From Escherichia coli (lineage in GTDB: Bacteria > Pseudomonadota > Gammaproteobacteria > Enterobacterales > Enterobacteriaceae): a DNA stretch of 64,000 nt. A model generated the notes under the pieces. The model ran no database searches. It saw only the letters and a program-made list of their open reading frames with translations, and was not told where the DNA came from. Position numbers and translations under genes: made by a program. Positions within the stretch are counted from its first letter, which is position 1. Every line of letters begins with the position of its first letter. Shown here piece after piece: positions 57,794-59,050 of the stretch. The stretch lies in the NCBI RefSeq assembly GCF_044324875.1, contig NZ_CP172185.1; one strand, given 5' to 3'.

Positions 57794-59050
57794 ATGTTCC
57801 GCCGTCTGCTTATCGCAACAGTCGTCGGTATTCTTGCGGCCTTTGCCGTTGCCGGGTTTCGTCATGCAATGCTGCTACTGGAGTGGTTGTTCCTCAATAA
57901 TGACTCGGGCAGTCTGGTCAATGCAGCGACAAATCTTTCCCCATGGCGACGGCTGCTAACCCCGGCGCTCGGCGGACTGGCGGCGGGTTTGTTGCTGATG
58001 GGCTGGCAGAAATTTACCCAGCAACGCCCTCATGCGCCGACCGATTACATGGAAGCGTTGCAAACCGATGGGCAGTTTGATTACGCAGCAAGCCTGGTTA
58101 AATCGCTTGCCTCTCTGCTGGTAGTAACCAGCGGCAGTGCAATTGGTCGCGAAGGTGCGATGATTCTTTTAGCTGCCCTTGCCGCCTCCTGTTTTGCCCA
58201 ACGTTTTACGCCACGCCAGGAGTGGAAATTATGGATCGCCTGTGGGGCCGCGGCGGGAATGGCTGCGGCCTATCGTGCCCCGCTTGCTGGCAGTTTATTT
58301 ATAGCCGAAGTGCTGTTTGGCACTATGATGTTGGCCTCTCTCGGCCCGGTGATTATTTCCGCCGTCGTGGCGTTGCTGGTTAGCAATCTGATTAATCATA
58401 GCGACGCGTTACTCTACAGCGTACAACTCTCAGTGACGGTTCAGGCTCGTGACTATGCGCTGATTATCAGTACAGGTGTGCTGGCAGGTCTGTGCGGACC
58501 ACTGTTGTTAACGTTAATGAACGCCTGTCATCGTGGATTTGTGAGTCTCAAACTTGCGCCGCCCTGGCAACTGGCACTGGGCGGGTTGATCGTGGGTCTG
58601 CTTTCCCTGTTCACACCTACAGTGTGGGGCAACGGCTATAGCACCGTACAATCCTTTTTAACCGCCCCGCCACTGTTAATGATCATTGCCGGGATCTTCC
58701 TATGTAAACTGTTTGCCGTGCTGGCGAGTAGTGGTTCTGGCGCGCCCGGTGGTGTCTTTACACCGACGCTATTTATCGGTCTTGCCATTGGCATGCTGTA
58801 TGGTCGTAGCCTGGGATTATGGTTCCCTGATGGCGAAGAAATGACGCTTTTACTCGGATTGACCGGAATGGCGACACTGTTGGCGGCGACCACGCACGCG
58901 CCGATTATGTCGACGTTGATGATATGTGAAATGACCGGGGAATATCAGCTACTCCCCGGTTTATTGATTGCCTGCGTAATTGCGTCGGTAATTTCGCGGA
59001 CGTTACACCGTGACTCTATCTACCGCCAGCACACTGCGCAGCATAGCTAA
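57794..59050 (+). CDS. clcB: Voltage-gated ClC chloride channel
   Basis: Start trimmed to [17 protein letters not shown] giving 418 aa; ClC selectivity motifs GSAIGREG and GAPGGVFTP. Confidence 0.9.

Follow-up and report, generated by a model that had tools for sequence, protein, structure and literature searches.

Conserved convergent overlapping gene pairs were reportedly described in prokaryotes by Rogozin et al. in 2002. Lillo & Krakauer (2007, PMC2174442) counted 58 convergent overlaps in E. coli, and the origin of such overlaps is explained by a stop-codon-mutation model. Of the convergent overlaps measuring 5 nt or more, 33% are in phase 123:321, and the terminators of convergently overlapping genes must sit in the coding sequence of the partner (PMC2174442). 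According to Palleja et al. (2008, PMC2478687), long overlaps that are real are tolerated in the convergent orientation alone. Excludons and overlapping 3' UTR antisense pairs (reviewed in PMC7154746) also include convergent units with 3'-complementary transcripts.

We analyzed the convergent genes clcB and ynfK in a 64,000-nucleotide stretch of Escherichia coli DNA (contig NZ_CP172185.1 of assembly GCF_044324875.1), hereafter called the window. Like other convergent overlaps, the pair consists of two bona fide genes on opposite strands that share their 3' ends in phase 123:321, with a probable run-on origin. On each class criterion tested, the pair agreed with the class: both genes have real homologues, each stop lies within the coding sequence of the partner, and the arrangement is conserved in several species. 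The overlap is genuine, is already annotated and is a member of this described class, and it is presumably one of the 58 E. coli cases of PMC2174442. Its 48 bp exceed the 4 bp of a typical convergent overlap but fall short of the 60-bp 'long overlap' class, and its conservation, family-wide in the Enterobacteriaceae, is deeper than that of most. A literature search under the gene name bidA, which ynfK now bears, returned no paper. The pair resembles excludons (PMC7154746) in its convergent units and complementary 3' ends. It differs from them in lacking a long antisense transcript across the neighbor and in that Rho curtails read-through.

Overall, clcB-ynfK is very probably an ancient tail-to-tail overlap of two independently transcribed, unrelated genes and not a dedicated regulatory device. 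The ORF-embedded hairpin, Rho region, codon-level dual constraint and probably overprinted tail described below are a small increment over the known overlap.

Table 1 Features of the clcB-ynfK locus, in window coordinates.
Feature	Position	Strand	Description
clcB CDS	57794..59050	+	ClC-type Cl-/H+ antiporter paralogue; 418 codons + stop, K-12 start
ynfK (now bidA) CDS	59003..59698	-	BioD-paralogous dethiobiotin synthetase; 231 codons + stop
Convergent overlap	59003..59050	both strands	clcB codons 404-418 + stop; ynfK codons 217-231 + stop
ynfK stop TAA	59003..59005 (read 59005-59003)	-	opposite clcB Leu404 TTA
clcB stop TAA	59048..59050	+	opposite ynfK Leu217 TTA
Dual-constrained core	59015..59023	both strands	clcB Ser408-Ile409-Tyr410 vs ynfK Arg228-Asp227-Val226
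YnfK extension past the BioD C-terminus	59006..59038	-	Arg221-Val231, 11 codons; BioD alignment ends at residue 220
Conserved stem-loop ACCGGGGAGUAGCUGAUAUUCCCCGGU	58934..58960	-	ynfK 3' untranslated RNA, 43-69 nt past the stop
Rho termination region, published peak	58993 (K-12 1666514)	-	'primary' for ynfK, antisense to clcB

Geometry and conservation of the overlap

The open reading frame list and the sequence agree that the 3' ends of clcB and ynfK share 48 bp, or 16 codons (Table 1). The two frames lie in exact antisense register, with clcB codon position 1 opposite ynfK codon position 3. K-12 (MG1655) RefSeq places clcB at 1665315..1666571 and bidA (b1593, formerly ynfK) at 1666524..1667219, giving an identical 48-bp overlap; subtracting 1,607,521 converts K-12 coordinates to those of the window. 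The best E. coli match to the region was 100% identical and carried annotated clcB and bioD/bidA genes. PGAP assigned identical ends to both genes in a strain identical to the window and placed the clcB start at 57758. The first-pass annotation was correct in naming the genes, in assigning their strands and coordinates and in giving a length of 48 bp, as checked against the open reading frame list, the sequence and K-12 RefSeq. Neither gene contained a stop upstream of the overlap, and both stops were kept in homologues.

[quoted passage not shown] Antisense stops in phase 123:321 are possible only opposite TTA, CTA and TCA, and these three together contribute 4.3% of the codons in clcB and 3.5% of those in ynfK. 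At these frequencies, a run of 15 antisense codons stays open with a probability of 0.52-0.59, and the mean open run is 23-29 codons. What exceeds chance is the conservation of both stops, not the length of the overlap.

Within E. coli, the 168 bp around the overlap occurred at 95% identity or more in 5,420 of 5,426 complete genomes. For the wider comparison, we combined 19 loci found through ClcB in a one-genome-per-species collection with loci fetched via YnfK orthologues. In more than 20 loci, representing at least 8 genera, both stops stood at orthologous positions and the overlap measured 45-48 bp. The convergent pair was present in Escherichia coli, albertii, whittamii and the cryptic lineages, in Citrobacter and Salmonella enterica arizonae, and also in Cedecea, 'Enterobacter' Ag1/Cy-643, Entomohabitans, Klebsiella michiganensis and Buttiauxella. 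Most overlaps measured 48 bp; those of Citrobacter and Salmonella measured 45 bp, the clcB stop lying one codon earlier as a TGA opposite a ynfK Ser TCA. YnfK was 231 aa long in Klebsiella, Kosakonia, Kluyvera, Buttiauxella and others.

The idea that the overlap DNA is more conserved than its flanks was rejected, as mean column entropy was 0.60 in the overlap and 0.51 and 0.40 in the flanks. Second-codon-position entropy reached 0.38 bit in the overlap, compared with 0.04-0.26 bit in the gene bodies. Since second-position variability exceeds that of the gene bodies, the overlapped tails are weakly constrained, and they are the least constrained parts of both proteins.

Two protein ends and their dual coding

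ClcB matched ClcA structures in the PDB (E ~1e-26), and its orthologues carried the Pfam Voltage_CLC domain. Aligned to Salmonella ClcA (1kpl), ClcB residues 5-410 covered chain residues 36-445, pairing ClcB Tyr410 with ClcA Tyr445, the central-site (gating) tyrosine at the start of helix R, whose role in the family is well established. Ser408 and Tyr410 of ClcB were at least 90% conserved, outgroup ClC proteins included. The AlphaFold model of ClcB contained a helix at 409-416, with a mean pLDDT of 86 for the 401-410 block and values below 50 only at 414-418. Among 1.84 billion cluster representatives searched, the nearest non-orthologous ClC relatives (45-49% identity) were also short, stopping 2-4 residues past S-I/V-Y (...SIYANH-stop, ...SIYGL-stop and ...SIYGD-stop). 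No bioD-like neighbor was present at the 2 outgroup ClC genes inspected, whose products (47-49% identity) end in ...SIYANH and ...SIYGL. These short outgroup proteins ending after S-I-Y imply that the S-I-Y codons predate the juxtaposition with ynfK. A truncation of ClcB by the overlap was considered and rejected, since its closest non-syntenic relatives end in the same way.

YnfK matched BioD (E = 5e-65), its residues 3-220 spanning the entire E. coli BioD chain, and it carried PF13500/PF01656. Because the BioD C-terminus coincides with YnfK residue 220, the 11-residue YnfK tail is an extension. AlphaFold2, run with a 21-sequence alignment, gave pLDDT values below 50 for residues 224-231. Judging the direction from paralogues and outgroups, residues 221-231 were probably, and most simply, overprinted on the antisense of clcB. 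A tail-less YnfK orthologue in an outgroup was not found in a homologue list dominated by close relatives. Under this scheme, clcB and ynfK would have been brought together, and the ynfK frame would then have run on into the clcB antisense. That frame would have stayed open until clcB Leu404, because stops arise only opposite TTA, CTA or TCA, leaving a newly overprinted tail. The outcome resembles overprinting in that the last 11 residues of YnfK lack a BioD counterpart and lie antisense to an older ClC motif. It departs from overprinting in that YnfK would have gained only a short tail, not a new protein or domain.

We compared codon choice on both strands in a table of 17 species. Codon 404 of clcB was Leu, encoded by TTA or CTA, in 17 of 17, pairing with a TAA or TAG stop of ynfK. 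The codon for clcB Ser408 was TCT or TCG (once ACG) and never TCC, TCA or AGY. YnfK Arg228 was kept in all 17 species, and it is this restriction of Ser408 to TCT/TCG that preserves it. ClcB residue 409 was Ile or Val, encoded by ATC or GTC, retaining YnfK Asp227 in 16 of 17. Tyr410 encoded by TAC likewise gave YnfK Val226 in 15 of 17. ClcB Arg411 was invariant, and the facing YnfK residue 225 varied among A, S and T.

Natural variants alter either end. E. coli E69 carries TAG at clcB Gln412, which is a silent Leu change (CTG to CTA) in ynfK, and its overlap is 27 bp. At a metagenome locus (L027), clcB Ser408 is TCA, a silent change that creates a TGA stop in ynfK, shortening YnfK to 227 aa and the overlap to 36 bp. 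Two Citrobacter strains hold a clcB remnant with internal stops beside an intact ynfK. Kosakonia lacks clcB altogether, and its YnfK is still 231 aa, ending in ...VADRILA. The retention of Arg228 and Asp227 in Kosakonia without clcB indicates that the YnfK tail, or at least Asp-Arg, is now under some constraint of its own. The case for a functional tail is weakened by L027, which drops the last four residues.

Transcript ends inside the partner gene

With no intergenic space available, termination of either transcript has to occur within the opposing gene. The first-pass annotation had concluded that the overlap leaves no room for an intervening terminator. An intergenic terminator is indeed impossible, but signals for termination may lie, and apparently do lie, within the coding sequence of the partner, as a published Rho region and a conserved stem-loop.

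Supplementary file 2 of Adams et al. (2021, PMC7815308) lists the ynfK Rho region on the K-12 minus strand with a Rho score of 4.2 (p = 1.5e-6). According to that file, reads upstream/downstream numbered 85/11 without bicyclomycin and 292/159 with it. Without bicyclomycin, ynfK read-through thus falls about 8-fold into clcB, and Rho removes about 87% of it. The peak lies 10 nt past the ynfK stop, a position that is approximate since the score uses 800-nt windows. The study's label 'primary' denotes a region within 50 bp downstream of a gene. Like other 'primary' regions there, that of ynfK shows bicyclomycin-sensitive read loss less than 50 nt from the stop, with untranslated RNA beyond. Unlike most mapped Rho regions, of which only 4.5% lie so near a gene end in the study's data, it adjoins its gene. 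It also differs from other 'primary' regions in that its untranslated RNA is the antisense of the clcB coding sequence and includes a conserved stem-loop. Over the two 50-nt windows next to the ynfK stop, minus-strand RNA had C/G ratios of 1.17 and 2.0, and beyond them the composition was mixed. In the searched text of the Term-seq tables of PMC7815308, made under aerobic conditions with low expression of these genes, no entry for a ynfK or clcB 3' end was found. The SMRT-Cappable-seq and Dar & Sorek supplements held no usable entry.

The stem-loop downstream of ynfK spans clcB codons 381-389 (T-G-E-Y-Q-L-L-P-G), with an 11-bp stem and a 9-bp conserved core. The version in the window folds at -18.5 kcal/mol and the K-12 version at -20.8. 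Within its 91-nt context the z-score was -4.4, and none of 200 shuffles folded as well. RNAalifold recovered the hairpin independently from a 15-species alignment, as the only long local helix on this strand. Across 21 sequences, the 11 stem pairs were 88.7% paired, compared with 30-49% in slid controls; the shuffle controls were modest. Klebsiella and L027 have one stem pair flipped from G-C to C-G, a Glu-to-Gln change (GAG to CAR) in one arm being accompanied by CTC to CTG in the other. Only this single type of compensatory pair was seen, in two possibly related lineages.

Codon choice in the hairpin arms departs from gene-wide usage in the direction that preserves pairing. Pro388 was CCC in 16 of 16 sequences (17% gene-wide), Leu387 was CTC in 14 of 17 (10% elsewhere) and Thr381 was ACC in 17 of 17 (34% elsewhere). 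Gly382 was GGG or GGA in 15 of 17, and GGC, the commonest Gly codon, appeared once. Both CTG exceptions at Leu387 coincided with the Glu-to-Gln change in the opposite arm. Within the 9-bp core, the minus strand had 19 G-U and 8 mismatched cells, and the plus strand had 3 G-U and 24 mismatches. This strand asymmetry suggests selection on the ynfK-sense RNA. The arms encode the conserved T-G-E and L-P-G, and conservation here is partly at the protein level.

The hairpin is G+C-rich and stable, as expected of an intrinsic terminator. The sequence directly after the stem, CAUUUCAC, forms a weak U tract with 3 U in 8 (at least 5 of 8 expected), so the hairpin is not a canonical intrinsic terminator. 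A scan of 57400-60200 for consensus terminators and promoters gave nothing beyond what shuffles would yield, and neither stop had a terminator nearby. An Rfam scan of 58600-59400 (E<=1) returned one chance-level snoRNA match, and no family fits. Kosakonia, which lacks clcB, carries a canonical bidirectional intrinsic terminator, AAAAAAGCCCCTCATCGGAGGGGCTTTT, directly past the ynfK stop. E. coli ynfK therefore resembles genes with intrinsic or bidirectional terminators in having a G+C-rich stem-loop downstream, where Kosakonia's equivalent place holds a textbook one. It differs in that its hairpin lies inside clcB, has the weak U tract, is biased to the minus strand and escaped the consensus scan.

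Taken together, ynfK transcripts appear to end inside clcB via Rho and a conserved RNA hairpin. Ribosomes would be released at the ynfK stop, and Rho would act on the untranslated RNA beyond. We infer from the sequence pattern that the downstream stem-loop may serve as a pause, termination-assisting or 3'-end-protecting element working with Rho. Biased synonymous codon choice in clcB would maintain it.

The other transcript gave no comparable signal. Plus-strand RNA past the clcB stop contained no conserved hairpin, RNAalifold yielding only scattered 3-7-bp helices, and the E. coli fold after the stop was no better than shuffles (z = +1.4). An E. coli-specific hairpin at 59195-59221 and a T6 run at 59126-59131, considered as a clcB terminator, were unsupported. 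Since no conserved terminator structure was found, the clcB 3' end is probably Rho-dependent or heterogeneous.

Antisense pairing and rival readings

Several other readings of the locus were weighed. The palindrome at the stem-loop might be unrelated to ynfK, reflecting either a ClcB amino-acid motif or a role in clcB mRNA or DNA (e.g., a translational pause during membrane insertion), with ynfK transcripts ended by Rho alone. Invariant ClcB residues are encoded in its arms, the plus strand forms an equivalent stem in many species (K-12 dG -19.9, compared with -20.8 for the minus strand), and the searched text of the Term-seq tables of PMC7815308 gave no 3' end at the hairpin. We nevertheless regard this reading as possible but rather unlikely, since third-position choices at the palindrome lie far from gene-wide usage and favor pairing. 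Moreover, at six synonymous transition sites of the core, changes tolerated only on the minus strand (as G-U) were found in 19 cells and those tolerated only on the plus strand in 3. In Klebsiella, the plus strand no longer sustains the stem (-6.2) but the minus strand does (-14.7), and distant ClC genes that do not face ynfK have no equivalent tight hairpin. A different doubt concerns the overlap itself, which would be an annotation or sequence artefact if a frameshift, a sequencing error or a spurious 3' extension had masked an upstream end of one gene, leaving its tail untranslated. Many long convergent overlaps in databases are indeed 3'-extension misannotations (PMC2478687), YnfK exceeds its paralogue BioD by 11 residues, and model confidence is low in both tails. 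Yet an open frame has by definition no earlier stop, about 5,420 genomes of E. coli share these ends, which are also conserved in at least 8 genera, orthologue lengths are uniform (YnfK 231 aa), the conserved S-I-Y with its gating Tyr lies in the ClcB tail, and 48 bp lies below the 60-bp flag of PMC2478687. The artefact explanation is thus largely refuted and highly improbable.

The first-pass annotation had also raised transcriptional interference or antisense pairing of the 3' ends. Both are physically possible, the two mRNAs being complementary over at least 48 nt. It is nonetheless improbable that the overlap is a selected, excludon-like antisense or interference module, in which anaerobic FNR induction of ynfK lowers clcB (or vice versa) because RNA polymerases collide or RNase III cuts a duplex of at least 48 bp. 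Complementarity is unavoidable for overlapping genes, the arrangement is kept across genera, FNR directly activates ynfK (PMC3688515), and bicyclomycin raises read-through antisense to clcB in the data of PMC7815308, making antisense transcription possible. Against such a module, we found no reciprocal expression or dsRNA signal: both genes were weakly expressed in the data sets examined, and a p19 dsRNA-capture study gave low gene-level counts for clcB and ynfK with no evident enrichment. Rho removes most of the ynfK read-through in the data of PMC7815308, overlap length varies naturally (27, 36, 45 and 48 bp), and shared ancestry with coding constraint accounts for the conserved arrangement. 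The loss of clcB in Kosakonia and its pseudogenization in the two Citrobacter strains left ynfK unchanged, which argues against an obligatory regulatory unit. Slightly less probable again is a selected coupling device built from overlap and hairpin together, with the hairpin and Rho determining the extent to which anaerobic (FNR-driven) ynfK transcription enters clcB. Such a device would tune the Cl-/H+ antiporter reciprocally to anaerobic biotin synthesis by way of colliding polymerases or the cutting of the 3' duplex by RNase III. Within the preferred reading of an ancient overlap of independently transcribed genes, we infer that if the two mRNAs interact as sense and antisense, they do so incidentally and within the limits that Rho sets.

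For annotators, these results mean that neither the clcB nor the ynfK stop should be 'corrected'. The pair offers a deeply conserved worked example of how the run-on of a frame into a neighbor's antisense may give a new C-terminal tail. It also exemplifies how dual coding narrows codon choice, as at clcB Ser408 and YnfK Arg228, and how transcript-end signals, here the Rho region and the putative stem-loop element, can be placed inside the partner ORF when intergenic space is nil.

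Sequence features flanking the clcB/ynfK overlap

Downstream of the ynfK stop codon, we found a conserved stem-loop embedded in the clcB coding sequence. It is kept by an unusual synonymous codon choice in clcB, and its pairing is better on the ynfK-sense strand. On the other side of the overlap, a T6 run beyond the clcB stop is kept across relatives. This run was considered as a clcB terminator and found unconvincing, because no conserved stem lies ahead of it. A genomic SELEX peak for HusR/YnfL, a regulator encoded nearby, has been given at old K-12 coordinate 1,664,668 (PMC12844172). 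This corresponds to about position 59123 of the window, inside ynfK and about 72 nt past the clcB stop.

Features of the clcB/ynfK 3' ends and of comparison loci
Feature	Coordinates	Strand	Description
Conserved stem-loop	window 58934-58960	−	clcB codons 381-389; 43-69 nt past ynfK stop
T6 run	window 59126-59131	+	76 nt past clcB stop; Lys-Lys codons of ynfK
CAG to TAG change, E. coli E69 (L010)	equivalent of window 59027-59029		clcB codon 412
Overlap, Enterobacteriaceae-like metagenome contig	L027:3761-3796		36 bp, clcB/ynfK
Bidirectional intrinsic terminator, textbook form, Kosakonia	L023:3697-3725		28 bp between ynfK and facing gene

Natural variation of the gene pair

Several natural variants alter the overlap. 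The new stop codon in E. coli E69 shortens ClcB by 7 residues and reduces the overlap to 27 bp, while remaining silent in ynfK (Leu). On the metagenome contig, the use of TCA as the clcB Ser408 codon creates TGA in ynfK, giving a 227-aa YnfK. Furthermore, a 213-aa YnfK variant (protein entry P0073; 278 member sequences, from Salmonella enterica serovar Infantis and others) has a frameshifted C-terminus ending in ...RAEQRAGGR, a change that would abolish the overlap in that lineage.

Decay or absence of clcB was also observed. In two Citrobacter loci, sp. Awk 4 (L020) and NCU1 (L021), only a C-terminal remnant of clcB with internal stops persists, and the convergent ynfK is intact, including its tail. 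The Kosakonia locus is without clcB; there, an osmoprotectant ABC-transporter gene opposes a ynfK encoding 231 aa.

Gene boundaries and constraint

Annotations disagree on the clcB start within 57734-57794. In K-12 RefSeq the protein has 418 aa and its gene begins at 57794. The PGAP model, with a start also used in Klebsiella, begins at 57758 and encodes 431 aa, and the longest ORF begins at GTG 57734 (438 aa).

E. coli YnfK shares 92-95% identity with its Citrobacter and Salmonella counterparts, and the adjacent ClcB only 77-80%. Whole-gene constraint is very different for the two overlapping neighbors.
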